64,000 bases of DNA. It comes from a virus. The DNA lies in IMG/VR virus record IMGVR_UViG_3300037419_001192, positions 1 through 64,000 of that record; one strand, 5' to 3'. The position numbers were made by a program, and so were the translations under genes. Of this stretch, positions 1 to 63,716 are shown one piece after another. The notes below the pieces were generated by a model. The model searched no databases, was not told where the DNA came from, and worked only from the letters and a program-made list of their open reading frames with translations. The number at the start of each line of letters is the position of its first letter. Position 1 is the stretch's first letter.

Positions 1-678
1 TTGAAGGAAGACCCATACCATGACCCAAAAAACGGACAATTCACTACCGCAGCCGGCGCAGGACATAGCGGAAGCAGCGTATCAGGAAATGGCGGCATCG
101 CACTCCGACCGCAGCAACCCGACGCCCTCCCACCCCAATCCGTCACCCACTACGGAAAACAAGCCGGCGTAACCGAACTCTCCGGTGCGTATTACGGCAC
201 TGGCATTCGCGGCGCGGAAGCCGAGCGGCTGGCAAAATCGAAAGATTTCAATATCAAGAACCGGGTGTATTTCTACCTGAATCCCCCGGATGGCAAGCTG
301 CCACGGAAGGAAGCCGGGCTCGGCAACAACGTGTACCAGACCACGTTATCCAACCTGTATGATCTGGCGAATGATCCGAAGGGCATCTTCGACAAGATCA
401 AGGGCATCGATGACCCTGCCACGAAATACAACACGATGGAGTCAGAGATAGTTAAGGCCGGCTACGATGGCTATATCTCGAAGGCATACAACATGGCCGT
501 GGTGCTGGGCAAGAACGTGCCCGTTCGAGAAATCAAGCAAGCTGCCGAGATTGACTATGCCGGCATGCTGCGCCGACGCAAGAAGCGCCAGCCGGGCAAG
601 GCAGGCTTCCAACAAGGGCAGATGGATTTGAACAGTGTCAACGCCAGCATGGCAGCCGCCAACGGGACTGGCAGTTGA
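1..678 (+). CDS. 5'-truncated protein with HDPKNGQF motif and possible ADP-ribosyltransferase-like domain
   Basis: ORF open at window start; PYHDPKNGQFT resembles HD/HPR-x-x-G-R/Q-F motifs of phage head-associated proteins; THY...RVYFY...LYD...GYDGY pattern resembles ART-fold domains of polyvalent phage proteins. Confidence 0.45.
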   Translation: MKEDPYHDPKNGQFTTAAGAGHSGSSVSGNGGIALRPQQPDALPPQSVTHYGKQAGVTELSGAYYGTGIRGAEAERLAKSKDFNIKNRVYFYLNPPDGKLPRKEAGLGNNVYQTTLSNLYDLANDPKGIFDKIKGIDDPATKYNTMESEIVKAGYDGYISKAYNMAVVLGKNVPVREIKQAAEIDYAGMLRRRKKRQPGKAGFQQGQMDLNSVNASMAAANGTGS

Positions 679-696
679 TTGCCAAGCGGGGGTGCA

Positions 697-963
697 ATGG
701 AACCCAGATTCTTCGAAAAGCAATTCAAGAAATGGGCCGCAATGCGCAAGCTGAATTTGCGCCGCACCCCCGATGGCAAGGATTTCCATTTCTTCCCAGC
801 CAAGCTGGCATGGCATAGCTGGCAAGTGCGCTCGATGTTGGCTACAAGCAACGAAGACGCCGAGATATTCAACCGGGCATTGCAACTGGCAAGCGAAGTC
901 GCATTTAATATGGCAGGGAAGGAAGTTGCCCAAGCCATCCAAAATCTAAAAATCAAAGAGTGA
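697..963 (+). CDS. hypothetical protein
   Basis: ATG at 697 within ORF 679..963; fits tight gene packing. Confidence 0.55.
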   Translation: MEPRFFEKQFKKWAAMRKLNLRRTPDGKDFHFFPAKLAWHSWQVRSMLATSNEDAEIFNRALQLASEVAFNMAGKEVAQAIQNLKIKE

Positions 964-964
964 T

Positions 965-1132
965 ATGGAAGTCGAAATCTTTTGCATCGTAGGAATCATC
1001 ATTACCGTCATAGCCGCAACGAAGATCGTGAATCAAGAAGATGGCACGATGACGTTTGCCGCATGGGCCGCAATGATGCTGGGCTTGATTTTGAGCATGG
1101 TTGCCGCGTATGAAGCCCAACTGCTGTATTGA
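965..1132 (+). CDS. small two-TM membrane protein (55 aa)
   Basis: Read manually: MEVEIFCIVGIIITVIAATK...AAWAAMMLGLILSMVAAY; fills gap before promoter. Confidence 0.55.
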   Translation: MEVEIFCIVGIIITVIAATKIVNQEDGTMTFAAWAAMMLGLILSMVAAYEAQLLY

Positions 1133-1156
1133 CAAACAGGATTAGTGTGTCATACT
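1129..1156 (+). promoter_or_regulatory. sigma70-type early promoter
   Basis: TTGACA(AAC)-N16-CATACT with TG extension. Confidence 0.7.
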
Positions 1157-1191
1157 GATGCTGTAGTCAGATCAATTTCAATGGAGTGAAT

Positions 1192-3075
1192 ATGAAACTG
1201 GTAACGATCTATGACGCCGAAGAACAAACGGCGGATTTCCTCGGAGGCAAGGGCTTTGGCCTGTGGAAGATGCAGCGCGAGGGCATCAACGTGCCACCCG
1301 CGATCATCATTCCGACCGAAGCTTGCCGCGAGTACATGAAAGACCCGAAGAAAGTGATGGGTCAAGTCAAAGACCGCATCAACGACATCACCGATTTCTT
1401 CATCGACAAGTTTGGCTATATGCCGCTCGTATCGGTGCGCTCGGGCGCGAAGATTTCGATGCCGGGGATGCTTGAAACGGTGCTAAATGTCGGGCTAGAT
1501 GGCGTGACGTTCGATTTCTGGAAAGAAAAGCTGGGTGAGGGTTGTGCAATTGATTGCCGCAACCGGCTGGCGCAGATGTATAACGAAACTGTGCTGGGCT
1601 TGAGCAAGGGTAATTGGGAAGCGCCCCCGGCAGCAGCGCTGCAATTGCTGAACTGCATCGAAGCGGTGTTCAAAAGCTGGAATGGCGAGAAAGCAAAAGT
1701 CTACCGTAAGCACCACGGCATTCCGGATGACTTGGGTACGGCAGTGACGATTCAAGCGATGGTGTTCGGCAATATGAATGAGCAATCCGGTGCGGGCGTG
1801 TACTTCACCCGTGATTGCAATACTGGTGACCCTTTTGCCGTGGTCAACTTTGCTGCCAATGCCCAAGGCGAGGATGTAGTGGCGGGCAAAGTGGCGGGCA
1901 TGCATGCGGGTGACTTTGCTGCGTGGAATCCGCCGATCTGCAATGAACTGTTTGAAATCGGGGAGAAGCTGGAAAAGAAAGAAAAGGATGTAGTTGATAT
2001 CGAATTCACTGTGCAGGATGGCAAGCTGTATATCCTGCAATACCGCAAGGCCAAGCGCACGGCGCAAGCGGCGGTGAAATTCGCGGTGGATTTCGCCAAG
2101 GAAGGCTTGATCAGCGAGGAAGAAGCGATCAAGCGGGTGAGCCGGCGTGATATCGATCTGGCTTGCTTGCCGATCATTGATCCGAGTTTCAAGGATAAGC
2201 CAGCGTACACCGGCATTCCGGCATGTTCGGGCGTGGCAATCGGTGTGGTGGTGAAGTCGGCGCAAGCGGCAATTGATTGCCAAAAGCCTTGCATCTTGGT
2301 AACGGACGAAACCACCCCGGATGACATTGCCGGCATGATTGCCGCCAAAGGTGTATTGACGATGAAAGGGGGCGAAACCTCGCATGCCGCAGTGGTGGCA
2401 AGGGGCATGAACAAGCCGTGCGTGGTCGGCCTCGGCAGCAGCACGGTGGACTTCGATGAAGGGGAAGTGATATCGATTTGCGGTGCCACGGGTCGTGTAT
2501 GGGTTGGCGCAGTGCCGATCATCGATGCCAGCGAGAGCCAAGACTTGAAGGAATTCAAGAACCTACTGTGGCAGCAGGCCGAGGCTATTGAAGTCGGGGG
2601 CAGCAATTACTTGCGCATCGATAGCATGTACCTGAATGACCCGAAGGAAATCGTGGCAAAGCTGGTTGCCAGCATCAAGGAGGCAGCGGGAGAAGTCTAT
2701 ATCGATATCCGGTTGCCGAAATACGATGATTCACTGAAGTTCTTCCTTACCTTTTTGAACCCGCAAGACTCGTTTGAAGACCCGATCATCAAGGGATTGG
2801 AGAAATCGCTGACTGAAAAAGACAAGGCACGGGTCAAGATTATCCGCAGCAGCATCGGCCCGATGGCGTTGCCGGAACTGGAATGGGTCTATACCTTGGA
2901 AGACTTGATTCTGGCAAAAGGCGAAATTCAAATGGAGATCAGCAATAGCGACACGGTGCAAAAAGTGCTGGAATGGAAGAAGGATGAAATTAGCCCGGTG
3001 TCAATTGGCGAACTGTTACCGGGGCAGAAATCGTTCATTTCGGAAGATCAATTGATTGCCCTGTTGCTGAAGTGA
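1192..3075 (+). CDS. pyruvate phosphate dikinase-like protein (ATP-grasp + phosphohistidine domains, no PEP/pyruvate TIM barrel)
   Basis: GGKG, SVRSGAKISMPGM, QAMVFGN, AQGEDVVAG, DIEFT, LYILQYRKAKRT, ETTPDDIAGM, GGETSHAAVVARGMNKPCVVG; C-terminal ~180 aa lacks PPDK barrel motifs; GGAG 5 nt before ATG 1192. Confidence 0.9.
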   Translation: MKLVTIYDAEEQTADFLGGKGFGLWKMQREGINVPPAIIIPTEACREYMKDPKKVMGQVKDRINDITDFFIDKFGYMPLVSVRSGAKISMPGMLETVLNVGLDGVTFDFWKEKLGEGCAIDCRNRLAQMYNETVLGLSKGNWEAPPAAALQLLNCIEAVFKSWNGEKAKVYRKHHGIPDDLGTAVTIQAMVFGNMNEQSGAGVYFTRDCNTGDPFAVVNFAANAQGEDVVAGKVAGMHAGDFAAWNPPICNELFEIGEKLEKKEKDVVDIEFTVQDGKLYILQYRKAKRTAQAAVKFAVDFAKEGLISEEEAIKRVSRRDIDLACLPIIDPSFKDKPAYTGIPACSGVAIGVVVKSAQAAIDCQKPCILVTDETTPDDIAGMIAAKGVLTMKGGETSHAAVVARGMNKPCVVGLGSSTVDFDEGEVISICGATGRVWVGAVPIIDASESQDLKEFKNLLWQQAEAIEVGGSNYLRIDSMYLNDPKEIVAKLVASIKEAAGEVYIDIRLPKYDDSLKFFLTFLNPQDSFEDPIIKGLEKSLTEKDKARVKIIRSSIGPMALPELEWVYTLEDLILAKGEIQMEISNSDTVQKVLEWKKDEISPVSIGELLPGQKSFISEDQLIALLLK

Positions 3076-3797: not shown

Positions 3798-3798
3798 C

Positions 3799-4697: not shown

Positions 4698-5729
4698 ATG
4701 AGTGAATTTATTCCCAAGAACACGCTTGCGTACTACGATGCGCTGCCGCAAACGAAACTGATTTCCGTCGCGCATATCCCGGCCAAGAATTTGGCAATCA
4801 ATTGCCGCGCTTATCTGGATGGTTGCGGCACCCCGCATCCGGAAACCGAAGCGCTGAGTTTTTATGCGCTGAACCATTTGGCTTCGATTGTGCGCAAGAA
4901 ATTCACTGCGCATGAAGCCTTGCCGGACTGGGCGGAACAAGTGATGCGGATGTATGCCGAAGCGCTGGCGAAGTCGGGGCAGCGGGCGCTAATCTATCTG
5001 GCGCTGATTACGACCCGAGAAGTGCGGCATACCCAGAAATCCAGTGAAGAAAATATCAAGGCGCATCTGGATAAGGAATTCGGCAAGGAGGTCTGGAAGT
5101 ACATCAACAAGCTGCGCCCGTTCAAAGGCAATTCGACTGGCGCAGTCAACCATTTCATGGATACCCCGCCCGATCTGACGCTCGGCCAATGGTTTTCCGG
5201 CGTTACCTATGCCTTCAACAATGGCAGCTACCAGAATGGGTATGGCGGCGTGAAGTGGGGCAAGGTGGCCGAGCCATTGGAGGCATTCATCCACGGCAAG
5301 ATTTCGCTGGAAATGTTGCTGGATACCGTGTGGACGCTGGCGCATAACGGTGGGCCGATTTTCAACAAGGGCATGTGCTACGACCATTACGGCACGGAAC
5401 TGATCCGCATCCTCGATGTGCAGCGTTCCGGGCAGATACCGGAAATGGTGATGTATGACTGGGCGGGGCAGCAATACAGCGATTACACATTAAAGCATCT
5501 GGTAACAAAAGTGCGGGGTGTCTGCCCGGAAGAATTCGGCCCGGAAGTTGACTGGCATTTGGTGGAGGCACTGGGGTCTATAGGTTCCTATGGGAAAGAA
5601 AAGCAAGCCCAAAAAAATAAACCCCAACCTAAGCCCGTGATAATTGAAGGCATGGAAAAGATTGGCGAATACAAAGTCGCGCCGGGCATTGCCGTACCCA
5701 TCCTCTCACGCAAAGGAGTTGCAGCATGA
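4698..5729 (+). CDS. phage hypothetical protein (343 aa)
   Basis: Long ORF with AAGGAG RBS; motif-like YGGVKWGKVA and DTVWTLAHNGGPIFNKG. Confidence 0.75.
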   Translation: MSEFIPKNTLAYYDALPQTKLISVAHIPAKNLAINCRAYLDGCGTPHPETEALSFYALNHLASIVRKKFTAHEALPDWAEQVMRMYAEALAKSGQRALIYLALITTREVRHTQKSSEENIKAHLDKEFGKEVWKYINKLRPFKGNSTGAVNHFMDTPPDLTLGQWFSGVTYAFNNGSYQNGYGGVKWGKVAEPLEAFIHGKISLEMLLDTVWTLAHNGGPIFNKGMCYDHYGTELIRILDVQRSGQIPEMVMYDWAGQQYSDYTLKHLVTKVRGVCPEEFGPEVDWHLVEALGSIGSYGKEKQAQKNKPQPKPVIIEGMEKIGEYKVAPGIAVPILSRKGVAA

Positions 5730-7232: not shown

Positions 7233-7462
7233 AACTGACTGGCGAGCAAGCCCGGATATACCGGGAACAATTCGCGGCGCTGGCAGTTGGCAATCAATTG
7301 CCGCTGCCCAGCCCGTTCCCCGGCATCGATACGAAGGCCCAACTGTTCCTGATCGAAAAGACCGAGAATTGGTGGCTGTTCGAAGCCTATCTGCTGGGAA
7401 TCCGCTTCGGCAAGGTGACTGCCGAATTCCATGACGATGCAATGGAGTTCGAAGAAGTATGA
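7229..7462 (+). CDS. hypothetical protein
   Basis: ATGA overlaps at both ends. Confidence 0.6.
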   Translation: MKLTGEQARIYREQFAALAVGNQLPLPSPFPGIDTKAQLFLIEKTENWWLFEAYLLGIRFGKVTAEFHDDAMEFEEV

Positions 7463-8237: not shown

Positions 8238-10618
8238 AACCATTTTTTGTTTGGACGGATGACCCGCAAGCCAAAGTGCGGCAACGGCTTGCGCCGGTCT
8301 TCAAGAATTTCAACTCGACCAAGATCATCATTGGCAATCAATTGCCACCGTTCGGGCAAGAGCAACCGGGCACGATCCTCGCGCTCGGCAACTCCACCCT
8401 CGGAACACTGCAAGCGGAAGGCGTTGTGCCGAAGGGCCGCACCATCAATAGCTTGCGCAGCCGGGTATTCCCCATGCCGCAATCCGGCATCCCGGTGATG
8501 TTCTCGTATAGTTCCGGCATCGGGGAAATCGACTATGGCAAGTTCGTTGATCTGGAATGCGATGTCGCGGCGGCATTACGGCTGCATACGACTGGCAAGC
8601 TGGAACCGAATCTTGGCTATTACCGCTATGTTGAACATTTCGCTGAGACAATGGACGCGATTGAGAAGCGATTTGCCAAGACCAGCATCCCGGTCGAAGT
8701 GGCGCTCGACTTAGAGACAATTGGCCTCGATCCTTATCTGAAACCCAACGGCGACCATCCGGGCGCGTATATCGTCACGATCCAAGTCTCCCATACCATC
8801 GGGCAAGCGGATGTCGTGAAGTTTGAATCAGCGGCAGCGGCGCAGCACTGGCTATCCGACTTTCGACCCCACATCGAATACCTGCTGAATTCCACAAAGA
8901 TATCGCTGCGCGGCGCGAACCTGAAATTCGACTTGCATTGGCTGGCCGTGCATACCGGCATTGAATGTACGAATTTCAAGTTCGACACCAATTTATGTGG
9001 GTCTTGCCTCGATGAAAATCGCAGTAATGGTCTTGATGTCCACGCGAAACTTTACGCTCCAGAAATGGCAGGCTACTCTGACCAATTCGACAAGAGTGTG
9101 GATAAGAGCCGAATGGACTTGGTTCTGAAAGCCCAACCGGAAGAACTGCTGAAATACGCGGGGGGAGATACGGATGCTTGCTTACGAGTAGCCCAAGCCC
9201 AAAAAGCCGAGTTATTAGCCGACAATGCCCTTTGTGGTTTCTACGTCAATATTTTGCACCCTGCTGCCCGCGCTTTTGAACTGGTGGAGCGAGGCGGCGT
9301 TCTTGTTGACATGGAAGCCTACAAGGAACTCGAAGCGGATTTGACCAATACGATTCTCGGGCTGATACAAAGAGCCAAGAAGATCGTAGGAGGCCGGATC
9401 GCTGCCAAGCACACAGATACAACAAAACTCGGTGGGCTGAATCTTACCAAAGCGGCTTTCTTGATCGATTTCATGTTCTCCCCCATGGGATTGAATTTAC
9501 GCCCAAAAATGATGACGGAAGGGGGAGATGCGCCAAGCACAGCGGGCGAGCATTTATCCATGTTCAAGGATATCCCGGAGGCCAAGGAGTTCGTATCCCT
9601 GATGGAAGAATACTCATCGGCTTCCAAGATATTGAATACTTATGTCCATGGTTTCCAGAAGCACATTCGTAGTGATGGCAAGCTGCACCCCAGCTATTAC
9701 TTCTTCGTGGGCAACAGGGATAATGCGGAAGGGGGCGCGGTCACCGGCAGATTGAGCGCCCGCGACCCGGCCATACAAACAATCGTGAAACACGGAAAGT
9801 GGGGAAAACCGCTTCGTAGGTGCTTTCCTGCGCCACCGGGCCATGTCGTCACAGAAGCCGACTATGCGCAAGGAGAGTTGAAGGTCATCGCCTGCGTTGC
9901 TAACGAGCCCACGATGCTCAATGCCTATCTGAACGGCATGGATTTGCATGCTCTGACGGGAGGCAGGCTTGCCGGTCTGGAGTATGACCAGATGCTGGAG
10001 TTGAAGAACTCCCCTGATCCGGCCAAGCAAGAAATGTATGATGAACTTCGGCAGTTGGCGAAAGCTCTCAACTTCGGCCTGATTTACGGAATGGGGGCCG
10101 AAGGCTTCAAAGAGTATGCGGGGGCAGGGTATGGCGTTGACATCTCCCTCGATGAAGCTATCCGGGCTCGTAACACCTTTTTCGATACCTACCCCGGCCT
10201 GATCCAATACCATGAACAATATAAAAACTTGGCACGGATGTATGGCTATGTGCGCAGCCCTCTTGGTAGGATTCGCCACTTGCCCTTGATTAAATCCCCT
10301 AATCAACAATCAAGGAGCAAGGAAGAAAGAAGGGCGGTGAACTCCCCCATCCAATCTACCTTGTCAGACTGCATGATTTGGGCGATAGCCCTGTACACCC
10401 AAGCGGGCCATGCCAAGACTGCCCCCTGCTTCTGCGTTATCCACGATGCCAGCTATAACTATGTACCGGAGGATCAAGTCGAAAAATATGGCAAGCTAGT
10501 GGTGGACTCGATGGAAAATTTGCCCTTCGAGCGTGTGGGCTGGCAACCCCAGCTTCGTTTTACTGCTGATATCAAGGCGGGCAAAAACATGGCCGACCTT
10601 CAAAAACTGAAACTGTAA
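8234..10618 (+). CDS. family A DNA polymerase with 3'-5' exonuclease and N-terminal UDG-like remnant
   Basis: ExoI ALDLETIG, ExoII NLKFD, ExoIII YAGGD; TGRLSARDP; motif A ADYAQGELK; motif B RQLAKALNFGLIYG; motif C IHD. Confidence 0.96.
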   Translation: MKPFFVWTDDPQAKVRQRLAPVFKNFNSTKIIIGNQLPPFGQEQPGTILALGNSTLGTLQAEGVVPKGRTINSLRSRVFPMPQSGIPVMFSYSSGIGEIDYGKFVDLECDVAAALRLHTTGKLEPNLGYYRYVEHFAETMDAIEKRFAKTSIPVEVALDLETIGLDPYLKPNGDHPGAYIVTIQVSHTIGQADVVKFESAAAAQHWLSDFRPHIEYLLNSTKISLRGANLKFDLHWLAVHTGIECTNFKFDTNLCGSCLDENRSNGLDVHAKLYAPEMAGYSDQFDKSVDKSRMDLVLKAQPEELLKYAGGDTDACLRVAQAQKAELLADNALCGFYVNILHPAARAFELVERGGVLVDMEAYKELEADLTNTILGLIQRAKKIVGGRIAAKHTDTTKLGGLNLTKAAFLIDFMFSPMGLNLRPKMMTEGGDAPSTAGEHLSMFKDIPEAKEFVSLMEEYSSASKILNTYVHGFQKHIRSDGKLHPSYYFFVGNRDNAEGGAVTGRLSARDPAIQTIVKHGKWGKPLRRCFPAPPGHVVTEADYAQGELKVIACVANEPTMLNAYLNGMDLHALTGGRLAGLEYDQMLELKNSPDPAKQEMYDELRQLAKALNFGLIYGMGAEGFKEYAGAGYGVDISLDEAIRARNTFFDTYPGLIQYHEQYKNLARMYGYVRSPLGRIRHLPLIKSPNQQSRSKEERRAVNSPIQSTLSDCMIWAIALYTQAGHAKTAPCFCVIHDASYNYVPEDQVEKYGKLVVDSMENLPFERVGWQPQLRFTADIKAGKNMADLQKLKL

Positions 10619-12222: not shown

Positions 12223-12255
12223 CTGGCAATCAATTGCCAAACCAAGGAGTGGAAA

Positions 12256-14501: not shown

Positions 14502-14531
14502 TCCGGCAATTGATTGCCAAAAGGAGCCCTG

Positions 14532-15111: not shown

Positions 15112-15503
15112 CCATGGACTTCAGCAAATACGAAAACGATGTGCCCTATCCGCATCGCAATGATTACACCACGGTGCATGTGTACAAGGGTGGCGAAGTG
15201 CTCGGCAGCTACAACCAATCCTGCTTGAAAAAAGTGCCGGACGGTGCCGTGACGGAAAAGGTGTTCGATGAAGCTGGTTATAGGGTTGCAGTTAGTAAGC
15301 ACAACGCCCGGCAAGTGGAACTGGAGCAGCAATTCATGCTGGATGCCTTTACCGAACTCGGCCTGCAATCAAACCCGTTCGCCAGAAGGCTGTATGCCAT
15401 TGCATGGGAGCGGGGACATTCTTGCGGATACAGTGAAGTACTCAGCATCCTTGCCGATCTGGCGGAACTCGATGCCGTGGCCCGCGAAGTGTATGGCAAT
15501 TGA
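15108..15503 (+). CDS. hypothetical protein
   Basis: AWERGHSCGYSEV motif; stop codon lies in palindrome. Confidence 0.7.
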   Translation: MTMDFSKYENDVPYPHRNDYTTVHVYKGGEVLGSYNQSCLKKVPDGAVTEKVFDEAGYRVAVSKHNARQVELEQQFMLDAFTELGLQSNPFARRLYAIAWERGHSCGYSEVLSILADLAELDAVAREVYGN

Positions 15504-15517
15504 TTGCCAAAATCTCT

Positions 15518-49159: not shown

Positions 49160-51148
49160 ATGACCGCGACAATGAATCTCGACTATGCGTTTGGCGGGCA
49201 ACCCTATGCGGTGGATGCTCCCAGCGACACGACCCCGGATACCCTTGATTATGCGTTTGGCGGGCAGCCCATCTATGTACCGTCATCCTCTACGGCGTCT
49301 TCGTATTCGGTTTCCGTATCGGAATTTGCCACGGCGGCGGATACGCTGTCGGCAACGGATTCCACCGCTGCCAGCATTACCGAAGCCGCTACGGCGGCGG
49401 ATTCCCCTGCCACCACAGTTGCCACGGCGGTCAGCATTCTGGAAAGCAATACCGCCTCGGATTCCGTTACCGGGGGCAATGTCACCACGGCGGCACAATC
49501 TGAGCCCGCTGCGGCGGGGGATGCCCCCACGGTAGCGGTCAATTTTGCACCCTCGATCACCGAAGCTAATACCGCGCTCGATACACTGACTACTGCGGTG
49601 ACATCGGCAGCCACGGTATTGGAAGCCGCCACGGCGGGGGATAGCACCGATGCCGGCGACCTCGTATCCGATAGCGTGGTGGAGGCTGCTGCCAGCGCCG
49701 ATACGGTTGCCGCGACTTGGCAATCGATTGCCACTGCCATGGAAGCCGCAACAGCCGCAGATGCAGTTGGGGTTTCTATACTGGGAGGTTCTTTCAGCGT
49801 TGCCGAGCCCGCCACGGCGACTGACCAAAGCAATGCGTCGGCTATTTATTTGATCAGCGAAGCGGGCGCAGCCACCGATGCGGTGTCAGCGGGGCGTATC
49901 GTTGCAGCTTCGGTTACCGAAGCGGCCACGGCGGGCGATGGCCTCGATCTGCAACAATCGCTGGGCGTCGCCATCACTGAAGCGGCGGTTGCTGCGGATA
50001 GCGAAACCGCTGCCTTCCATACCGTGCTGCGCCAAAGCGAAACGGCGGCAGCGAATTCGACGCAAGCCAGTACGTTGGTCACCGCAGCCAGCATCAATGA
50101 AGCCGCTGCTGCGACCGATAAGCTATCGGCCACGATCCCCAAGAGCCATCAAGTCAAGGCCAGCTTGGCTGAAGCGGCTGCCGCCAAGGATACGGTATCG
50201 ACCGGCCCGACCAAGACCACGGCCACCATCACTGAAAATGGCTTGGCGGCAGATCAAGTGTCTTCCAGCTATATCGGCCAAGTCACGCCGAATGCCGAGG
50301 CCATGGCTGCCTCCGATCAAGCTGGCAGCACGATGGTTACCCTTGCTACGGCGGCGGAAGCCGCGCTGGCGGATGACCTTGCCGATGGCACGTTGGTATC
50401 GACGCAAGGGGCAGTGGATGCTGCTGCGGCGGCAGATTCCTTATCTGCTGGCGTAACAACGGCGGCTGCTGTGCTGGAGATTGTTGCGGCAGTCGAAATA
50501 GTATCGGGCACTCTCGTCACGGCGGCGGGCGTTACGGAAGCCGCTGCTGCCCTCGATACCGAACAGCAGACCAAGGCGCTGGCCCCGCTGGCAATGCATC
50601 TGGAAGTTGCGCAAGCACTGGATGTCGTGGCTGCGGATCGTATCGTGCTTGCCGATGTCGCAGAGCCGACCGACTACCTGACCGAAGCAACTGATTCTTC
50701 GTTGATCGAACTCTCGGTGCAGCAACTCGAAAAGCTGCATGCCACCGATGCCACCGATGCCGGCTATGCGATCCCGCTGGCAGATACCGAAGCCGCGAAT
50801 GCGAAAGCCATGGTATCGGCAGGCTTGCTGGCGGCAGCAGAGCAATGGGATTACGCGGCAGCACAGGATGACGTCGATGCCGGGATCACGTACCAAGTCA
50901 GCGTGGCTGAAGCCGCCTTCGCTACGGATAGTACCGATGCCGGCGTGATTCGCCTTGCCATCACTGTGGAAATCGCGGCGGCGAGCGATGCCAGCAACCG
51001 CGCCATCGAAGAAATCAAGCCGATCAAGACTGGATTGCATTTCGCCCATATCGGACACGGCAGCTTGAATTGGCAATCAATTGCCAAGCGCGAGGCGAAC
51101 TTTAGTTCGGTGCGCCGTTATCAAGTACCATTTTCCGATGAGCAATAG
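49160..51148 (+). CDS. Ala/Thr-rich repeat fibre protein
   Basis: Many E-x-A-x-A-x-D repeats at roughly 18-20 aa period; duplicated LDYAFGGQP at N-terminus. Confidence 0.65.
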   Translation: MTATMNLDYAFGGQPYAVDAPSDTTPDTLDYAFGGQPIYVPSSSTASSYSVSVSEFATAADTLSATDSTAASITEAATAADSPATTVATAVSILESNTASDSVTGGNVTTAAQSEPAAAGDAPTVAVNFAPSITEANTALDTLTTAVTSAATVLEAATAGDSTDAGDLVSDSVVEAAASADTVAATWQSIATAMEAATAADAVGVSILGGSFSVAEPATATDQSNASAIYLISEAGAATDAVSAGRIVAASVTEAATAGDGLDLQQSLGVAITEAAVAADSETAAFHTVLRQSETAAANSTQASTLVTAASINEAAAATDKLSATIPKSHQVKASLAEAAAAKDTVSTGPTKTTATITENGLAADQVSSSYIGQVTPNAEAMAASDQAGSTMVTLATAAEAALADDLADGTLVSTQGAVDAAAAADSLSAGVTTAAAVLEIVAAVEIVSGTLVTAAGVTEAAAALDTEQQTKALAPLAMHLEVAQALDVVAADRIVLADVAEPTDYLTEATDSSLIELSVQQLEKLHATDATDAGYAIPLADTEAANAKAMVSAGLLAAAEQWDYAAAQDDVDAGITYQVSVAEAAFATDSTDAGVIRLAITVEIAAASDASNRAIEEIKPIKTGLHFAHIGHGSLNWQSIAKREANFSSVRRYQVPFSDEQ

Positions 51149-51791: not shown

Positions 51792-52258
51792 TACCCCACG
51801 GCATGAAGCAAGCGGTCAGGCAAGAATTCCCGGTGCTGCTGGCAGTCTGTTTCGTCGCCCTGATCCTCGGCGGGCTCGGCGCAATCGGTTGGCTGTATGT
51901 TTTCGAACAGCCTTACCTCGAATACCGCAACATTCCCTTTCCGATCACGGACAACCCGGTGCGGGCCGGCGATTCGGTGCCGTTGACGGTATCGCGGTGC
52001 AGCCGGGCTTCAACGCCGCGCACCTATACCCTCACGCACTCGCTGGAAAACATCAAAACGCATGCCGTGGTGCTGCTGCCCGAAACGCAATCGTATATCC
52101 AGCCGGGTTGCTCCATCGGCCTATCCTCGCTGCATACGGTGCCGAAAGGCACTCCGACCGGGCGCTACCGCGTCTATGGCTTGGCTGAAGTCCGCACCAG
52201 TTTCCGTACCCATTACGTCGAATGGTATAGCCAAGAATTCGATGTGATTGGCAATTGA
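51788..52258 (+). CDS. membrane-anchored periplasmic protein in lysis region
   Basis: N-terminal TM then beta domain with two Cys. Confidence 0.6.
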   Translation: MIPHGMKQAVRQEFPVLLAVCFVALILGGLGAIGWLYVFEQPYLEYRNIPFPITDNPVRAGDSVPLTVSRCSRASTPRTYTLTHSLENIKTHAVVLLPETQSYIQPGCSIGLSSLHTVPKGTPTGRYRVYGLAEVRTSFRTHYVEWYSQEFDVIGN

Positions 52259-52273
52259 TTGCCGGATGCCGCC

Positions 52274-54037: not shown

Positions 54038-54071
54038 ATACAACCGTGCGGCAATCGATTGCCAAAACCCT

Positions 54072-54680: not shown

Positions 54681-54908
54681 ATGACTGCCCAGCAAGCCCG
54701 CGTCTTGAAAATACTGATTGCCCGCGACCGTTTGTACCGCAGCAAAGTGTTTTATCAAGTCCCTGTCGAAAAGAAAGACATGGGCGTGGCAATCGGCGTG
54801 GTGGCGAATCGCCAGACCGCTGATTCCCTCGTTGCATGCGGCTTGGCTGAAGTCCGAGACTTTGATGGCCGGCTGTATGTGTGTTTGAAAAGTAACCTTG
54901 GCAATTGA
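54681..54908 (+). CDS. hypothetical protein, possibly wHTH-like
   Basis: AGGAG RBS; MTAQQARVLKIL...RQTADSLVACGLAE. Confidence 0.6.
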   Translation: MTAQQARVLKILIARDRLYRSKVFYQVPVEKKDMGVAIGVVANRQTADSLVACGLAEVRDFDGRLYVCLKSNLGN

Positions 54909-54932
54909 TTGCCATTTTCAATGGAGTGGCTG

Positions 54933-56787: not shown

Positions 56788-57357
56788 ATGACTGAATTTT
56801 TGAAATCCGTTCTTGGCGATTACAAGCCATTCGAATTCATCCACGGCACCGGCAACCGCTACATTGTCATCGGGAAAGTCGGTGACAATAAAGTGGCGAT
56901 CCATATCGAAGCCGGCACCGGGGCCGTACCGTACAAGGGCAACAAGCTGGCAACGACCGGGCTGGCGCTGCGGCTAATCGAAATCGGGGAAGATTCCCTG
57001 CTGGGTAAAGCCTTCGGGCATCGCGGCCATGCGCAGTTCGCCACCCCGGATGGGGAAGTCCTCGAAGGGCATCGGCTGATCAAGACCTTTTTGCCGGTCA
57101 CCAACTACCCGACTTCCGGCGCGACGTTCCACAAGTTTCTGGCTGTAGCACTGCCGAAACTCGCCACTTTCATCAAGGAAAAACTCGAAGGCGCGGGCGG
57201 CAAACTGACGATTTCCCTCGATGAACTGGAAACCGCAATGAAATGCAACCTCGATCTGTACGATAACCCCGACCTCGATCTGTTCCATTTGCCGGGGCAA
57301 AAGCCGGATTGGCTCGAAGCCAAGAAACCGGAACCGCCTGCCGAGAGTGGCAATTGA
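56788..57357 (+). CDS. hypothetical protein
   Basis: CAATGGAGTG leader; stop within palindrome. Confidence 0.7.
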   Translation: MTEFLKSVLGDYKPFEFIHGTGNRYIVIGKVGDNKVAIHIEAGTGAVPYKGNKLATTGLALRLIEIGEDSLLGKAFGHRGHAQFATPDGEVLEGHRLIKTFLPVTNYPTSGATFHKFLAVALPKLATFIKEKLEGAGGKLTISLDELETAMKCNLDLYDNPDLDLFHLPGQKPDWLEAKKPEPPAESGN

Positions 57358-57677
57358 TTGCCACGATTGACCGGTTCTTCCTATGGTCGGGAGCCACCCA
57401 TTTTTTCTTGCTCCTGACCTTCGGCTTCGATGCCATACTTGCTGTTTTCTTAATCAACCATTGGAGATTATCCGTGTCGCACAAGTGTTCCAAATGCACG
57501 ATGAAGTTCAATTCCGCCAAGCAAGCGCAGTGTTCCCGGATCGGCTGCCCCGGCAATCGGGTCACGAAGAATTTGCAGGAAACTGCGGATATTCCCGAGT
57601 ATGACTTCGGCGGCATCTTGCAAATGGATTCAACGAGCGAACCACTGGCTGATCGGGGAGAAATAGATGGGTACTGA
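57354..57677 (+). CDS. membrane-anchored zinc-finger hypothetical protein
   Basis: Hydrophobic stretch then CSKC...CSRIGC; start uncertain. Confidence 0.45.
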   Translation: MIATIDRFFLWSGATHFFLLLTFGFDAILAVFLINHWRLSVSHKCSKCTMKFNSAKQAQCSRIGCPGNRVTKNLQETADIPEYDFGGILQMDSTSEPLADRGEIDGY

Positions 57678-59275: not shown

Positions 59276-60384
59276 ATATTTCACCATATCAATTGCTGAA
59301 CCTGATCGAAGGGGGTGGCGCAGCCACTTCCCTCCGTATGGTGTACGTCGATATCGCTGGTGGGGACATCAATGCTGGCTTGCTGCTAACCCAGATCGCT
59401 TACTGGAACAAGCCGGACAAGGGCGGAAACGATACCAAGTTGCGGGTGGAAAAGAATGGCAGGCTATGGCTGGCAAAGAAGCGCACCGACTGGTACGCGG
59501 AAATCCGCCTGACAGAGAAGCAATACGACCGGGCCATCCGCATTCTGCAAGACCTTGGCATCGTGGAAGTCCAACTGTTCAAGTTCAACGGGCACCCAAT
59601 ACCGCATATTTGGCTCAATATCGACACGCTTTACCATCTTGTCGGCCAGATTCAGTACGGTAAGGATGGACTCCCCATTTTACCTAAACAGGAAAATGGA
59701 CTTTCCCCAAACGGTAAAATGAGTTTTACCCAAACGGTAAAATCTTTAACAGAGACTACTACAGAGAGTACAACAGAGACTACAGACCTTGGGCTTTGCC
59801 CAACCCCACCCGATGTTAAAAAAGAATTAAAACCGGGCAAGGAAGATTTTAAGATAGGAGTAGAAAAAATGGCAACGGTTAAAGAGGTATTGGAAAATAA
59901 GCAAATTAAGAAAAGTGAAAATTTGGCTACCCCGAAGTTGGCTGCCAAGAAGTCGGATTTATACCTGCGCTGGAAACAGCAAGCTGCCCAATACCATGGC
60001 GGCAAAGCCAAGGAGTTGACTGGCAAGGATGAGGGGCAACTGAATCATGTGTTCAAGGCGGTTGGTGCGGATTCGATTCGGCTGATCGATTTTGTCTGGG
60101 GCCATTGGAAGAAATTCGCCAACAAGGTCGCGGAGAACAAGGGGATTGCTCTTATCCCCGGTGAGCCTTCGCTGCCGTACTTCTGCACCCACTACGATGT
60201 GGCGTGGCAATTGATTGCCAAAGCTGATGCTGCCCAACAACCGGTAAAAAAATTACAACCTGCAATTGACAAACAAGGTAAAGTCAACGACACTCCGGGT
60301 ATTAAGGAAAAGCCGTACATCCCTTCCCCGGAAGAACTGGCTGCACTTTCTGAAAGTCTGAAGAAGCCGGGGGTGGAAATTTAA
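59272..60384 (+). CDS. replication initiator (wHTH, lambda O-like organisation)
   Basis: AGLLLTQIAYW...WLAKKRTDWYAEIRLTEKQYDRAIRIL; internal DNA iterons; TETTTESTTET linker. Confidence 0.8.
   Translation: MNISPYQLLNLIEGGGAATSLRMVYVDIAGGDINAGLLLTQIAYWNKPDKGGNDTKLRVEKNGRLWLAKKRTDWYAEIRLTEKQYDRAIRILQDLGIVEVQLFKFNGHPIPHIWLNIDTLYHLVGQIQYGKDGLPILPKQENGLSPNGKMSFTQTVKSLTETTTESTTETTDLGLCPTPPDVKKELKPGKEDFKIGVEKMATVKEVLENKQIKKSENLATPKLAAKKSDLYLRWKQQAAQYHGGKAKELTGKDEGQLNHVFKAVGADSIRLIDFVWGHWKKFANKVAENKGIALIPGEPSLPYFCTHYDVAWQLIAKADAAQQPVKKLQPAIDKQGKVNDTPGIKEKPYIPSPEELAALSESLKKPGVEI
59678..59743. repeat. putative replication-origin iterons
   Basis: Three units at 23-bp period (59678, 59701, 59724), consensus TTTTACC-CAAAC-GGTAAAA (internally palindromic), followed by A-rich tract ~59815-59930. 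Confidence 0.75.
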
Positions 60385-60946: not shown

Positions 60947-62248
60947 GTGTCTTTCAAGGTCGGTTACAAACTATTAAAACGGTTGTGCCAAGATCAAAAA
61001 CCACTCGCTTGGCACCAATGCAAACTCACCAAAGAGTTGTTTGACGGAACGGAAGAACAGCAAGCGTATCAATGGGTCGATGCCCATATCACGAAGCACC
61101 ATGCCTTGCCCTCGGTCGATACGCTGGGGCAGGCATTTCCCGAGTTCAAGCAATTCGATGCACCCGAGCCGGTCAGCTATTACCTCGAAACGGTAGAGCG
61201 GCGCTTCAAGATGCGGGTCATGAACCAAGCCAATATCGCCAGCCAAGCGATTTTGAAAGAAGCGCAATCGGATTTGGTTGGCGCTCCTGCCAAGGTCGAA
61301 GAAGCGGCAAAGATATTGCGCGAAGCCACTGACAAAATTACCCGGAATGCTTTCCGCACGAAGCTGATCGATTTCGGTGTCGAAGGCCCGAGCCTTGTGT
61401 TGCAGGAATACCACTCGCTGAATGCGAAGGAAAGCAAGGTCGTCTTTGGCTGGCCGTATCTCGATGATCAATCCGGTGGAGCGCTGCCCGGCGATTTGAT
61501 TTCCTTCGTTGGTCGCCCGGCATCCGGCAAGACGTTCATGGGCTTGAATGCGGCACTGAAGAATTGGATTCAGGGCGCGAACATCTTGTTCGTTTCCATG
61601 GAAATGAACCCGATGGCAATTTCGCAGCGCTTGACCGCGATGTATGCCCATGTGTCATTGACCGCGCTGAAAACGAGTGGCTTTCCGACTGCCAGCTACA
61701 AAAAATTTGCCGGCAGCCTGCAATCAATTGCCAATGAAAAGGCGAAGTTGTATATCGTCAATGGCAACTTGGCCGCGACTTGCGAAGACATTTATACGCT
61801 GGCCGATCAACTGCAAGTCGATGCGGTGTTCAACGATGGCGCGTATTTGATGAAGCACAAGAATCCCCGGCTGGATCGCTTCACGAAAGTGGCCGAGAAC
61901 ACCGAAATGATGAAGCACTTTACCGAAGTGCTTGCCATCCCGACATTTGCTTCATGGCAGTTGAACCGTGAAGCGGCCAAGAAAGTCAAGAAAGACAAGG
62001 AAACCGTTGGACTCGAAGATATTTCAATGTCCGATGCGATTCCCCAAGCATCCTCGATGGTGCTAGGATTGTTCCAAGAAGAAAGTGTCGAAACCAGTGA
62101 AGGCCGGATCATCGAAGTCATGAAAGGCCGCGATGGGCAAGTGGGCCGGTTCTTGATCCACTGGGATTTCGAAAAAATGAATTTCGATCAAATCGTGGAT
62201 ACGGAAGCGGCACCGCTGCCATCCCCGGAAGATGAACAATACATCTAG
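60947..62248 (+). CDS. DnaB-like replicative helicase
   Basis: GRPASGKT, FVSMEM, NDGAYLM, WQLNR, MKGRDG. Confidence 0.92.
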   Translation: MSFKVGYKLLKRLCQDQKPLAWHQCKLTKELFDGTEEQQAYQWVDAHITKHHALPSVDTLGQAFPEFKQFDAPEPVSYYLETVERRFKMRVMNQANIASQAILKEAQSDLVGAPAKVEEAAKILREATDKITRNAFRTKLIDFGVEGPSLVLQEYHSLNAKESKVVFGWPYLDDQSGGALPGDLISFVGRPASGKTFMGLNAALKNWIQGANILFVSMEMNPMAISQRLTAMYAHVSLTALKTSGFPTASYKKFAGSLQSIANEKAKLYIVNGNLAATCEDIYTLADQLQVDAVFNDGAYLMKHKNPRLDRFTKVAENTEMMKHFTEVLAIPTFASWQLNREAAKKVKKDKETVGLEDISMSDAIPQASSMVLGLFQEESVETSEGRIIEVMKGRDGQVGRFLIHWDFEKMNFDQIVDTEAAPLPSPEDEQYI

Positions 62249-62278
62249 TAACAGCTAGTCACCACAACGGAGTGAGAC

Positions 62279-62572
62279 ATGCTTTCCTTGAGTTCGATCA
62301 ATGGTTGGCACTTGCTGGTTGCCTCTGGGTCATTGTTGCTCCTATTCTGTATCCTGTTGTACAGCAAGCCCCCCAGTAGTGCGAAGGGCCGGTGGATCGC
62401 AGAAGTCTGGACTGTCTCCCCGTTCAACCATGGCACTCAAGTCCGCTGGCGACGCCGCTATAAATACCGCTGGCAAGCCGTATGGGCAGCCAAAGCCGAA
62501 GCCCGGTTGATGGATCATATCGGCGCGGTTCACTGGGAATTCGGTATCGACTGGGGAGTGCGCGGGCTTTGA
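62279..62572 (+). CDS. membrane-anchored hypothetical protein
   Basis: N-terminal TM; CA-ACGGAG-TG leader. Confidence 0.55.
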   Translation: MLSLSSINGWHLLVASGSLLLLFCILLYSKPPSSAKGRWIAEVWTVSPFNHGTQVRWRRRYKYRWQAVWAAKAEARLMDHIGAVHWEFGIDWGVRGL

Positions 62573-62597
62573 CAAACTGGTGAGTGTCGTTTATACT
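62569..62597 (+). promoter_or_regulatory. sigma70-type early promoter
   Basis: TTGACA(AAC)-N17-TATACT. Confidence 0.8.
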
Positions 62598-62630
62598 TCC
62601 ATCTGATCAATCAAACCATGGAGGGGCAAA

Positions 62631-63101
62631 ATGACACTCGTAGTCAAACGCAAGGCAGGCACCGTCACCATTACCGAAACCGAGCAAGTCGCGCAGCCGG
62701 TTGCCAAGATCAAGTCCGGCATCATTACCGAAGAACAGCAGAAGATCGACCGATTCGTTGCACTGAACCAACAGATCGAGGATTCGGGCATCTTGCCGCT
62801 GATCGAGGAACGCGAAACGCTCAAGAAGGAATTGGCTGCCGTTGCCAAGGATTACCCACCCGAAAAGAATGTGGTTCTAAAGGGAACCATCGGGGAAGCC
62901 GAATTTTCCCGCGCCAGCAACACCACCGAGATTGTCGATAAAGCTGGTTTGATCGAGAAATTGGGTCAAGCCGTTTTCAATGAATGCGCCAAGATCGGTA
63001 TCGAGGAATTGAAGAAATACCTTTCCGAAAACGAACTGGCGCAGTTCACAGCATCGGGCTATGGATCGCGCCGCTTACAGGCGATCCGTCCCTATGAATG
63101 A
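62631..63101 (+). CDS. hypothetical protein
   Basis: CC-ATGGAG-GG leader; coiled-coil. Confidence 0.7.
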   Translation: MTLVVKRKAGTVTITETEQVAQPVAKIKSGIITEEQQKIDRFVALNQQIEDSGILPLIEERETLKKELAAVAKDYPPEKNVVLKGTIGEAEFSRASNTTEIVDKAGLIEKLGQAVFNECAKIGIEELKKYLSENELAQFTASGYGSRRLQAIRPYE

Positions 63102-63276
63102 TGCCCAACTCCCCCCGCTATCCGAAGCGCTTCAACGTGTGAAATATGCAGTCCGTCCGGATGTCATTGATTTCTTCCGGACGCTGCATGGCAAGCTGGA
63201 TCAAGCCACCACCGTCGATGAATTGAAACCGATCATTGAAGTCCTGATGCTGACCCTTTTTGACGAGAGGCACTAA
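63094..63276 (+). CDS. hypothetical protein
   Basis: Coupled small ORF. Confidence 0.5.
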   Translation: MNDAQLPPLSEALQRVKYAVRPDVIDFFRTLHGKLDQATTVDELKPIIEVLMLTLFDERH

Positions 63277-63716
63277 TGGCAACAAGAAAAATTGGCAAGA
63301 CCAAGGCTGGCGCAATCATCACGATTGGCCGCAGCGATTCGAAAGGGCTGGAAGGCACTTACGAGAATTGCGATGACCATGCGGAAAACCTGATCCCGCT
63401 GGTGAAGTCGCTGCTGCCGATGGCGAAAACCGTCGATGTGAAAGAATGGCGTCAGTTCAACAATGTCCACTATCTGTTTTGCCATAGCGGGCGCATCCTA
63501 TTCTTCGAAGGCCACAAGGTCAACCGGGAATATGTTGGCATTCGCTTCGGTATCAAATACTGCGGCTTGAAGGTGCCGCTGTTCTTGTACACCGACACGG
63601 AACAGCTACTCGATTTCTGGCAATTGATTGCCATCCTCGCCGCCGAGCCGAACATCATCGGCAAATCGATCATCAATCTGGAAACGCAAGAATCCTGCGA
63701 AGAAGCCAAAGTTTAA
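63276..63716 (+). CDS. hypothetical protein
   Basis: TAATG coupling, GAGG RBS. Confidence 0.6.
   Translation: MATRKIGKTKAGAIITIGRSDSKGLEGTYENCDDHAENLIPLVKSLLPMAKTVDVKEWRQFNNVHYLFCHSGRILFFEGHKVNREYVGIRFGIKYCGLKVPLFLYTDTEQLLDFWQLIAILAAEPNIIGKSIINLETQESCEEAKV

Follow-up and report, generated by a model that had tools for sequence, protein, structure and literature searches.

Dispersed repeats in phages, plasmids, and bacteria

The stoperators of Cluster A mycobacteriophages are asymmetric sites, oriented with transcription, that are bound by the immunity repressor (gp71 in phage L5) of an integrating temperate phage. The uptake signal sequences (USS) and DNA uptake sequences (DUS) of Haemophilus and Neisseria are asymmetric words on bacterial chromosomes that are read by the competence machinery. 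Cluster O mycobacteriophages carry 17-bp dyads, TGTTCGG-N3-CCGAACA, with 34 copies in Corndog (PMC4351075), and the IncP-1 plasmid RK2 carries dispersed OB operators for KorB, the N-terminal CTPase domain of which is needed to clamp and slide and the partners of which are KorA and the ParA-type IncC (PMC11790492). Here, we analyzed the first 64 kb (64,000 nucleotides; the window) of a 102,690-bp virus record, IMGVR_UViG_3300037419_001192 from IMG/VR (GC content, 54.6%), which carries dozens of copies of one palindrome, GGCAATYRATTGCC. The Cluster O dyads are the closest described phenomenon to this array, and KorB with its OB operators is the closest described mechanism; the array itself is not a member of the KorB family. 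The sites are most likely docking sites for one conserved, predicted phage protein, and the array as a lattice on duplex DNA with a phage-encoded dimer as its putative reader is the explanation that we favor, at somewhat better than an even chance.

Copy number, consensus, and selection on the DNA

Exact copies of GGCAATYRATTGCC number 28 in the window (13 with TG, 10 with CA, and 5 with CG centers), against none in 100 dinucleotide shuffles, and the invariant 12-bp core, GCAATYRATTGC, occurs 35 times (15 TG, 15 CA, and 5 CG). An earlier note made from the sequence alone had put the total at 39 or more, with 17 TG, 16 CA, and 6 CG centers; a figure near 39 is reached only with one-mismatch copies, and the tally of centers is replaced by the counts above, while its statement that the motif lies far beyond chance holds. 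The whole genome contains 60 core copies (none in shuffles), centered on CA (29), TG (23), or CG (8) and never on TA, and only about 11 one-mismatch copies, including TGGCAGTTGATTGCCA at 670 and two others at 45024 and 46308. Across the 60 copies, ten core positions show no variation. The full consensus spans 16 bp, YGGCAATYRATTGCCR (also written YGGCAAT-YR-ATTGCCR), and the geometry is that of a 14- to 16-bp inverted repeat with two half-sites of 6 to 7 bp. The CA:TG ratio of 29:23 is the one (3:2) to be expected from coding constraints alone, through avoidance of TGA in one frame.

The codon-preserving shuffle that the earlier note had proposed as a control did not match the observed counts, with synonymous codons shuffled within genes leaving 9.1 copies in the window (35 observed) and 20.1 genome-wide (maximum, 26; 60 observed), and the copies that survived were mostly the unshuffled intergenic ones. 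The proteome contains the peptides QSIA, QLIA, AIDC, AINC, GNQL, and GNRL at 43 places, and at 39 of them it is the motif that encodes the peptide. In alignments with Stenotrophomonas phage Summit, sites were created by substitution and never by insertion, and the protein sequence is bent to the motif, as in the large terminase (GQSIAD versus GQKIHD in Summit) and DnaB (LQSIAN versus MQQLAF). Twelve intragenic sites could be compared in genes with Summit homologs; five fall at the same codons in Summit and DLP5, two of them also in the uncultured phage contig G001, at protein identities of 33 to 48% and against a chance expectation for a neighboring site of about 8%. Conserved sites sometimes flip their center between CA and TG. 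Because codon shuffles lose most copies and the motif-coded peptides arise by substitution, selection acts on the DNA and not on the peptide, as had been proposed. The DNA-level signal overrides protein sequence to the extent that about 40 peptides of the proteome exist solely because of the motif.

Placement and spacing of the sites

About 60 to 70% of the copies are intragenic and, as noted before, are read in different frames, all three being used. The earlier description of most copies as lying inside genes is correct to that extent but overlooked a 3- to 4-fold enrichment in noncoding DNA, which makes up 8% of the genome and holds 16 sites (4.8 expected), and an enrichment at stop codons, with 19 sites at most 12 nt from a stop (2.5 expected) and five sites at which the central TGA is the stop codon itself. 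Intergenic enrichment is likewise found in Summit, DLP5, and the Rhodobacter phage RcZahn. The regularity check proposed for the spacing showed gaps far more even than random, with a coefficient of variation (CV) of 0.59 against about 0.95 for random placement (P<=1e-4). The CV is 0.47 in Summit, 0.46 in G001, and 0.49 in DLP5 (P<=1e-4), and it is also low in RHph_Y1_11, SIO-2, RHph_TM16, and VcaS_HC. The largest site-free gap, 4.3 kb, lies within the tail genes, and no genome region is without sites. The 35 core copies in the window, followed by three one-mismatch copies, are listed below, with the strand given as ".".

1545..1558,., TG site within the PPDK-like gene at 1186-3075 (CAIDC); left outer base T
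2268..2281,., TG site within the PPDK-like gene (AAIDCQ); codon position shared with Summit, DLP5, and G001
4793..4806,., CA site within the gene at 4698-5729 (LAINC)
7289..7302,., CA site in the gap downstream of the gene at 6405-7232
8333..8346,., CA site within the DNA polymerase gene at 8234-10618 (GNQLP); none at the aligned Summit codons
11180..11193,., CA site within the gene at 10628-11236
12225..12238,., CA site, intergenic; TGA stop 2 nt before, next start 18 nt after
14505..14518,., TG site occupying the gap that separates two small genes
15495..15508,., site with its central TGA as the stop of the gene at 15108-15503; about 10 bp upstream of the -35 of the TTGACAAAC promoter at 15518
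17867..17880,., TG site, intergenic, upstream of the portal gene; adjoins the terminator-like hairpin at 17884-17907
20102..20115,., TG site within the MuF-like gene at 19738-21213 (ALQLIAK); codon shared with Summit, DLP5, and G001
21083..21096,., CA site within the MuF-like gene
21250..21263,., CA site early in the protease gene at 21217-21864; previous site 167 bp away
24119..24132,., TG site, intergenic, after the major capsid gene; right after the terminator-like hairpin at 24088-24117
25637..25650,., CA site within the gene at 25591-26037 (LQSIA); codon shared with Summit and DLP5
26938..26951,., TG site after the major tail gene at 26136-26909
27794..27807,., CA site within the tape-measure gene at 27644-35428; right outer base A
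32064..32077,., CA site within the tape-measure gene
33342..33355,., CA site within the tape-measure gene; left outer base T
34007..34020,., CA site within the tape-measure gene; right outer base A
37933..37946,., CA site at the junction of the genes at 36607-37929 and 37913-38401
38957..38970,., CG site within the tail gene at 38402-39259 (FGNRLP)
39802..39815,., CG site within the tail gene at 39259-41346 (YGNRLP)
41862..41875,., CG site within the tail gene at 41343-42170 (FGNRLP)
46211..46224,., TG site 3 nt past the stop of the tail gene at 42179-46207; adjoins the terminator-like hairpin at 46229-46258
46947..46960,., TG site shortly upstream of the gene at 46997-49150
49719..49732,., CG site within the gene at 49160-51148 (WQSIA)
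51072..51085,., CA site within the gene at 49160-51148 (WQSIA)
52250..52263,., site with its central TGA as the stop of the gene at 51788-52258
54050..54063,., CG site about 10 bp upstream of the -35 of the TTGACAAAC promoter at 54072
54900..54913,., site with its central TGA as the stop of the gene at 54675-54908, at the start of the AAA ATPase gene
57349..57362,., site with its central TGA as the stop of the gene at 56725-57357
60206..60219,., TG site within the DnaD/O-like initiator gene at 59272-60384 (WQLIAK); position shared with Summit and DLP5
61719..61732,., CA site within the DnaB-like helicase gene at 60947-62248; left outer base T
63619..63632,., TG site within the gene at 63276-63716
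670..683,., one-mismatch copy GGCAGTTGATTGCC; the half-site GGCAGT corresponds to the TGCAGT variant common in RcZahn
45024..45037,., one-mismatch copy GGCAATCGTTTGCC
46308..46321,., one-mismatch copy GGCAATCAGTTGCC

Of nine terminator-like hairpins, four are in contact with a site. They make up the complete set of the late region and are located before the portal gene and after the capsid, major tail, and tail-fiber genes. After the major tail gene, the palindrome at 26938..26951 is extended to GGGTGGCAA/TTGCCACCC and followed by a T run, and the extended palindrome is itself the stem of the terminator-like hairpin (26934-26963). The left half of the site at 24119..24132 supplies the TTGGCA of a promoter-like TTGGCA-N17-TACAAT, and Summit likewise has a site after its capsid gene.

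Beyond the window, three sites at genome positions 82366, 82773, and 83179 lie 407 and 406 bp apart; they bracket a nonconserved 206-aa gene upstream of the large terminase gene and reach the terminase start. The regular 407/406-bp spacing suggests a higher-order protein-DNA structure, possibly in a packaging-related region. At genome positions 101700-102030 and window positions 1-30, two sites are embedded in a longer repeat, GGCAATC[AG]ATTGCCA[AG]AGTC[CT]TGAAGTTCAACAAAT, the unit of which reads QSIA(K/R)VLKFNK(Y/W)HD in one frame.

The motif family in related phages

Among cultured phages, three that infect Stenotrophomonas, DLP5, DLP3, and Summit (Delepquintavirus), are the closest, with capsid identities of 67 to 68%, followed by RcZahn, SIO-2-like Vibrio phages, and Rhizobium phages; a megablast search of 20 kb against phage records gave the Summit capsid gene (73%) as its sole match. 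Motifs of the relatives were found by de novo k-mer counts. The phages with the motif form a wide family with genomes of 80 to 120 kb, in which a copy recurs at intervals of a few kilobases, both within genes and between them. A TGCAA-N4-TTGCA-type motif is the top repeated word in Summit, DLP3, DLP5, G001, RcZahn, SIO-2, RHph_Y1_11, RHph_TM16, HJ05, and RcTiptonus, and the check in related phages that had been called for gave the same motif family throughout the clade:

Summit, DLP5, and DLP3 (Stenotrophomonas): TGCAATCAATTGCA; 26, 27, and 24 copies
G001 (IMG/VR contig IMGVR_UViG_3300035562_000082): KGCAAT-YR-ATTGCM; 26 copies
RcZahn (Rhodobacter): TGCAAT-YR-AYTGCA; 19 copies
SIO-2 (Vibrio): perfect TGCAAT half plus an imperfect half; 25 copies
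RHph_Y1_11 and RHph_TM16 (Rhizobium): TGCAAC-AW-ATTGCA and kin; 30 and 17 copies
HJ05 (Aeromonas): TGCAAC-YR-GTTGCA; 16 copies
RcTiptonus (Rhodobacter): TGCAATCGATTGCA; 27 copies

Of 49 uncultured 20-kb loci fetched through homologs of the 275-aa protein described below (p275), about 35 have TGCAA-N4-TTGCA as their most frequent 5-N4-5 palindrome. The densest array seen is that of L249 (IMGVR_UViG_3300025572_000001, 66939-87616), where TGCAATTAATTGCA recurs 29 times over 20.7 kb, or once per 0.7 kb. A subgroup (L247, L252, L255, L256, L260, and L261) uses a TA center, which the present phage never does, and half-sites are shifted by lineage to GGCAAT, CGCAAT, TGCACT, TGACAT, or TGCAAC. In G001, the outer bases are asymmetric and oriented on the coding strand, with 14 copies of TGCAAT…ATTGCC against 3 of GGCAAT…ATTGCA, which hints at a directional component or at coding constraints.

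A pattern scan of IMG/VR for the 16-mer gave mostly single chance matches and one motif-rich contig, G001. A scan of one genome per bacterial species gave scattered single chance matches, with no motif-dense genome, host, or prophage among the matches listed, so that the proposed check in candidate hosts came out negative over that range. A published description of the motif was not found; a full-text search for its letters returned primers only, and the papers on DLP3 and RcZahn do not mention the repeat. The motif is a simple marker for spotting this phage group in metagenomes.

The near identity of the half-site TGCAA in phages of Vibrio, Aeromonas, Stenotrophomonas, Rhodobacter, and Rhizobium would also fit a host protein that is conserved across Proteobacteria and reads the sites as a recruited factor, or for which they act as a decoy or sink. 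This is very unlikely, as the bacterial scan gave no dense genome among its listed matches, and RcTiptonus and RcZahn, which infect the same R. capsulatus strain, differ in their centers (CG in 25 of 27 copies versus 0 of 19, RcZahn using CA/TA). In addition, lineage-shifted half-sites are the pattern of a coevolving phage-encoded reader. The likeness to a sigma-54 (-24/-12) promoter fails on spacing, TGGCAA-N4-TTGCC being GG-N9-GC rather than N10, and the TGCAA of the relatives lacks the GG.

Probable half-sites in duplex DNA

The outer positions (-1/+12) of the sites are GC in 49 copies, TC in 7, GA in 4, and TA in none and do not covary, and in G001, a T.C mismatch is the commonest outer combination (14 copies). 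The sites of SIO-2 and VcaS_HC typically pair a perfect half with an imperfect half, and most copies in SIO-2, VcaS_HC, and RcZahn contain a stem-breaking mismatch other than G.U (A.C or A.G). The central step is always YR, the most deformable dinucleotide class. The arms are conserved in sequence, and not merely in complementarity, across alpha- and gammaproteobacterial phages, a pattern that reads as the signature of duplex DNA recognized as two half-sites by a protein dimer. The earlier proposal of a dimeric protein acting genome-wide fits well with half-sites that seem to be read independently around a flexible YR step, as would be expected for the predicted binder.

An RNA element is improbable by comparison, whether it served in termination or attenuation, in processing by RNase, or in stabilizing 3' ends at the ends of genes. 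The palindrome can fold into a hairpin with a 5- to 6-bp stem and a UYRA loop, all genes lie on one strand, so that every copy is transcribed, and copies are enriched directly past stop codons; the extended copy at 26934-26963 with its T run resembles a terminator, three more late-region terminators adjoin a copy, and the annotators of Summit placed terminators beside two copies. However, 60 to 70% of the copies lie within open reading frames (ORFs), four of them in the tape-measure gene, and the stem sequence itself is kept between the alpha- and gammaproteobacterial phages. Because the half-sites deviate independently, with outer positions that never covary and stem-breaking mismatches in most copies of three relatives, the RNA hairpin is disfavored. 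Some copies may have an RNA role, one of them doubling as a terminator stem.

The near-total invariance of the core suits an enzyme target equally well, a point that counts against a simple DNA-binding lattice. The sites would then be the target of a sequence-specific phage DNA enzyme that modifies, nicks, or cuts them, for example, to start recombination-dependent replication or packaging. Ten core positions without exception and few near misses are typical of enzyme specificity, the clade modifies its DNA, as DLP3 DNA resists 15 restriction enzymes (PMC7326821), it encodes a RecA-like protein, an exonuclease, and two resolvases, with a ligase in Summit, and the present genome is circularly permuted in the assembly. 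We nevertheless consider an enzyme unlikely. No methyltransferase or nickase is universal in the clade, resistance to 15 enzymes points to a global rather than a site-specific modification, and symmetric nicking would break both strands every 1.7 kb. The half-site degeneracy of SIO-2 and RcZahn is unlike strict enzyme sites, and the overrepresentation and even spacing of an enzyme's own target would remain to be accounted for.

A conserved candidate reader

Every protein of at least 60 aa was compared by jackhmmer with 11 motif-bearing genomes. Homologs in all of them were found for DNA polymerase and the large terminase, along with the portal, protease, and capsid proteins; for DnaB, primase, a helicase, an SSB-like protein, and a Ycf46-like AAA ATPase; and for a RecA-like protein, two resolvases, and an exonuclease. 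The only universal protein without an assigned role is p275 (275 aa; genome positions 74521-75348, outside the window). Its gene has its own strong sigma-70-type promoter 70 bp upstream, a codon score per residue equal to that of the capsid protein, and a motif site that starts 10 nt past the stop codon. More than 333 homologs were found, mostly on 95- to 120-kb contigs, and none has a Pfam domain. The motif co-occurs with p275, and a capsid-related Bacillus phage has neither.

In the AlphaFold2 (AF2) model, p275 has a disordered N terminus followed by helices only, with a predicted local distance difference test (pLDDT) score of >90 for most of residues 30-165. When the model was compared by VIA-align with 48,161 chains, ParB's DNA-binding domain (DBD) with parS (6s6h; Z 8.2), Spo0J (1vz0; Z 7.8), the KorB DBD with its operator (1r71; Z 7.1), and KorB (8qa8; Z 6.2) were all in the top eight, with P1 ParB (1zx4; Z 4.7) and VirB (3vwb; Z 4.5) at lower ranks. 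Foldseek returned ParB/KorB look-alikes at low scores (6sdk; probability, 0.60), and the ESM Atlas returned HTH_ParB and DUF3102 look-alikes (TM, 0.35 to 0.40). That the central domain of p275 folds like the helix-turn-helix (HTH) DBD of ParB and KorB is a supported lead from the predicted structure. A few lineages with changed half-sites have a changed putative recognition helix in p275 (residues 92-99 in the present phage), which reads RTI in the present phage versus RKA and carries R97E and R97F in L241 and L242. p275 as the reader of the motif is a tentative assignment, to which we give somewhat less than an even chance.

Several points weigh against this assignment. The fold matches are only moderate for a domain made up entirely of helices (Z 7 to 8), a RuBisCO chaperone domain outscores them (Z 9.3), and Z values of <13 may be unspecific for helical domains. 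Sequence profiles (Pfam, NCBIfam, and PDB) gave no significant match to p275. Other universal genes co-occur with the motif equally, so that the phylogenetic profile narrows the choice without proving it. Finally, the coincidence of helix and half-site is confounded by phylogeny, and position 97 varies among phages with the standard motif too.

In 23 of 51 loci, the 400 bp upstream of p275 contain a site (7.8 expected), which is no more than the general intergenic enrichment, and autoregulation of p275 was rejected on this ground. A contig of 374,533 bp, with NCBI, ENA, and Logan as its sources, is listed as carrying one p275 homolog, P0036; this copy could be integrated or misbinned and might be a clue to the host or to a lysogenic state.

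Other candidate readers were rejected. The 136-aa protein at 3106-3516, which had been proposed as a winged-HTH binder, has no Pfam, PHROG, or PDB match and is absent from the motif-bearing RcZahn, SIO-2, and Rhizobium phages, and that proposal is not upheld. The DnaD/O-like initiator (59272-60384), considered as an iteron binder, was not detected in SIO-2, VcaS_HC, or RcTiptonus, and no origin-like cluster of sites was seen. A 61-aa ORF with a Sigma70_r3 fragment (genome positions 101560-101745) is not conserved and has an unconvincing HTH, and the Ycf46-like AAA ATPase (54909-56129) shows no DNA-binding domain. As to a strict ParB/parS system, ParB_N (PF02195) had no match in the whole genome at E<=0.1, with positive results for control genomes, and ParA/CbiA (PF01656) had no match in the genome; "ParB domain" proteins occur in DLP3, DLP5, and Summit without being universal. 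Because neither ParB_N nor ParA was found, a strict ParB/parS system was rejected, and a classical partition system is disfavored. The parS-like role raised in the earlier note gains some weight from the predicted ParB/KorB-type HTH fold of p275.

A 141-aa MerR-like protein (genome positions 68845-69270) has a weak MerR_1 match; no other core protein carries an annotation as transcriptional regulator. It could be the repressor of a classical immunity system that silences a plasmid-like lysogen, since a temperate lifestyle is reported for DLP3 and for DLP5, the latter of which has been recovered as a phagemid (PMC7326821), and the placement of sites at stop codons and in short gaps resembles that of stoperators. 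Immunity through this or another phage repressor is unlikely for several reasons: the MerR-like protein is absent from the motif-bearing RcZahn, RHph_Y1_11, and RcTiptonus, no Cro/CI-type HTH was found among 106 small ORFs searched with Pfam, and no integrase was found in the genome, nor were ParA and ParB_N seen. Moreover, the sites are symmetric and unoriented, and there is no site-free "immunity" region, the largest gap lying in the tail genes.

Promoters and other repeated words

The phage has its own promoter family, TTGACAAAC-N12-13-(TG)-TAnnnT, with about 17 strong, sigma-70-like copies, all intergenic and on the plus strand:

Window positions 1129, 4620, 6356, 13058, 13545, 15518, 54072, 56725, and 62569, plus strand, TTGACAAAC promoters
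Genome positions 66367, 74451, 77471, 87417, 89861, 93806, and 98166, plus strand, TTGACAAAC promoters

A similar leader (…GTCGTAGTGATGACC / GTCGTGGG…) often lies downstream of these promoters. The structural block at 16.5-53 kb has no strong promoter, a weaker TTGGCA/TACAAT at 24117 overlapping the palindrome, and late transcription must therefore use something else. Given this separate promoter family and no conserved -10 downstream of the palindrome, the palindrome was rejected as a promoter. It lies within 20 bp of a promoter at three promoters only.

TTGACAAA words are overrepresented in the uncultured relatives L250, L253, and L259. A second overrepresented word in the present genome, CAATGGAGTGA, has 21 copies here and 16 in Summit (e.g., at 24160 and from genome position 88986 on); it coincides with ribosome-binding sites and in some cases takes the form CTCC-AAT-GGAG, by which the Shine-Dalgarno sequence could be sequestered.

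Genome context

The contig repeats 127 bp exactly at both ends (window positions 1-127 and genome positions 102564-102690). This direct terminal repeat is probably an overlap left by assembly, the genome being circular or circularly permuted with a length of 102,563 bp. According to a codon-score gene caller, 121 of 124 confident genes are on the plus strand. The phage is a siphophage. Its portal, protease, and capsid genes lie at 17.9-51 kb together with the MuF-like gene, the tail genes, and the gene for a tape-measure protein of 2,594 aa, and a module for replication and recombination occupies the sequence from about 59 kb on. A block adjoining the DNA polymerase gene (window positions 1186-7232) encodes a PPDK-like phosphotransferase, two DSP/PTP-type phosphatases, and a 343-aa protein (phrog_20946); it is kept in 9 of 11 relatives, is absent from RcTiptonus and HJ05, and may be tied to the DNA modification reported for DLP3.

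A proposed lattice on the phage chromosome

The analysis shows that the sites exist, that they are selected at the level of the DNA and conserved throughout the clade, that their spacing is even, and that p275 co-occurs with them; binding, dimerization, and the physiological role are inferred. In the mechanism that we propose, p275 as the candidate reader would be made early and in quantity and would occupy all sites, so that no stretch of phage DNA would be more than about 4 kb from a bound dimer. The lattice would mark and organize the chromosome, and it might dampen or punctuate one-directional transcription at gene ends and late-region terminators, acting in the manner of KorB on dispersed OB operators or of stoperators rather than from a promoter-proximal operator. 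Global marking, with chromosome organization and punctuation of transcription in the style of KorB, Noc, or stoperators, is a possible role that we put forward with caution, and a self-tag for replication, recombination, or headful packaging of a permuted genome is a still more tentative one. It is a comparably speculative idea that a whole family of 80- to 120-kb siphophages tags its own chromosome with a regular palindrome lattice that is written into genes at the expense of their products and is read by an HTH-only offshoot of the ParB fold, operating without CTP or ParA.

Several results do not sit easily with the lattice. Even spacing was not significant in RcTiptonus (CV, 0.92) or HJ05 (CV, 0.76). 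The association with hairpins has a P value of <0.001 against uniform placement but of only about 0.05 when the preference of the sites for intergenic DNA is taken into account. At 14 of the 17 promoters, no site lies within 150 bp, and downstream of promoters a site comes no sooner than by chance. From these promoter statistics, a simple repressor role is not indicated, and a promoter-operator role is disfavored.

If the lattice is read as proposed, it would be a previously unrecognized phage system of chromosome organization or self-recognition, distinct from immunity operators and partition centromeres. It might organize replication, recombination, or packaging, set boundaries of topology or transcription along a one-directional genome of 100 kb, or counter host silencing. 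A protein-read lattice would be a conserved layer of control or organization in phages among which are candidates for therapy against Stenotrophomonas maltophilia and the vibrios of aquaculture. The system is unusually tractable, with a short exact site and one small candidate protein of which hundreds of natural variants exist, and the lineages with shifted half-sites provide a ready-made specificity code.

Comparison with known systems

Terminators and repetitive extragenic palindromic (REP)-like hairpins are extragenic and show covariation, whereas most of the present copies are intragenic and no covariation was found; one copy (26934-26963) does form a terminator-like hairpin. The likeness to USS and DUS is one of resemblance only: about one copy per 1 to 2 kb, spacing evener than chance, occurrence in all frames, the shaping of peptides, enrichment at gene ends and terminators, and the general idea of a "self" tag on DNA. 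They differ in that no result here connects the palindrome with DNA uptake.

Stoperators share with the array the dozens of 13- to 14-bp copies throughout the genome and the location in short intergenic gaps and over stop codons (partly after PMC4351075). The earlier note had set the motif apart from stoperators; this is right for symmetry, the present sites being symmetric and unoriented (CA:TG, 29:23), with no repressor or integrase found, but their placement at stops and in short intergenic gaps resembles that of stoperators. The Cluster O dyads are closer, with invariant inverted arms, at least 30 copies throughout a siphophage genome, no tie to promoters, no orientation with transcription, about a third to two thirds of the copies in ORFs, and a dimeric binder predicted in both cases. 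In contrast, the Cluster O dyads have no relation to the present motif in sequence, phage lineage, or hosts (Actinobacteria), their density is higher at one end of the genome rather than even, and they belong to one tight cluster, whereas the present motif extends over a family of alpha- and gammaproteobacterial phages with lineage-specific half-sites. A protein-read lattice would offer a testable handle on a question first raised for Cluster O, the purpose of dozens of promoter-independent dyad repeats in a phage genome.

In mechanism, KorB and the OB operators are the nearest, with ParB-parS, Noc-NBS, and VirB as wider kin. The sites of ParB and KorB are palindromes of 13 to 16 bp, and the present inverted repeat is 14 to 16 bp long. 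In both systems, a short palindromic site is scattered around a replicon of 60 to 100 kb, with many copies far from promoters, and the dimeric KorB has a ParB-type HTH, a fold to which the p275 model matches in DBD-DNA complexes of KorB and ParB (Z, 6 to 8). Unlike on RK2, with about a dozen sites, there are 25 to 60 here, mostly in ORFs and evenly spaced; the CTPase domain, KorA, and the ParA-type partner on which KorB depends are all lacking, and, with no ParB_N or ParA/CbiA in the phage, p275 is predicted to be an HTH-only protein. By analogy, the array may work like KorB on its dispersed operators.

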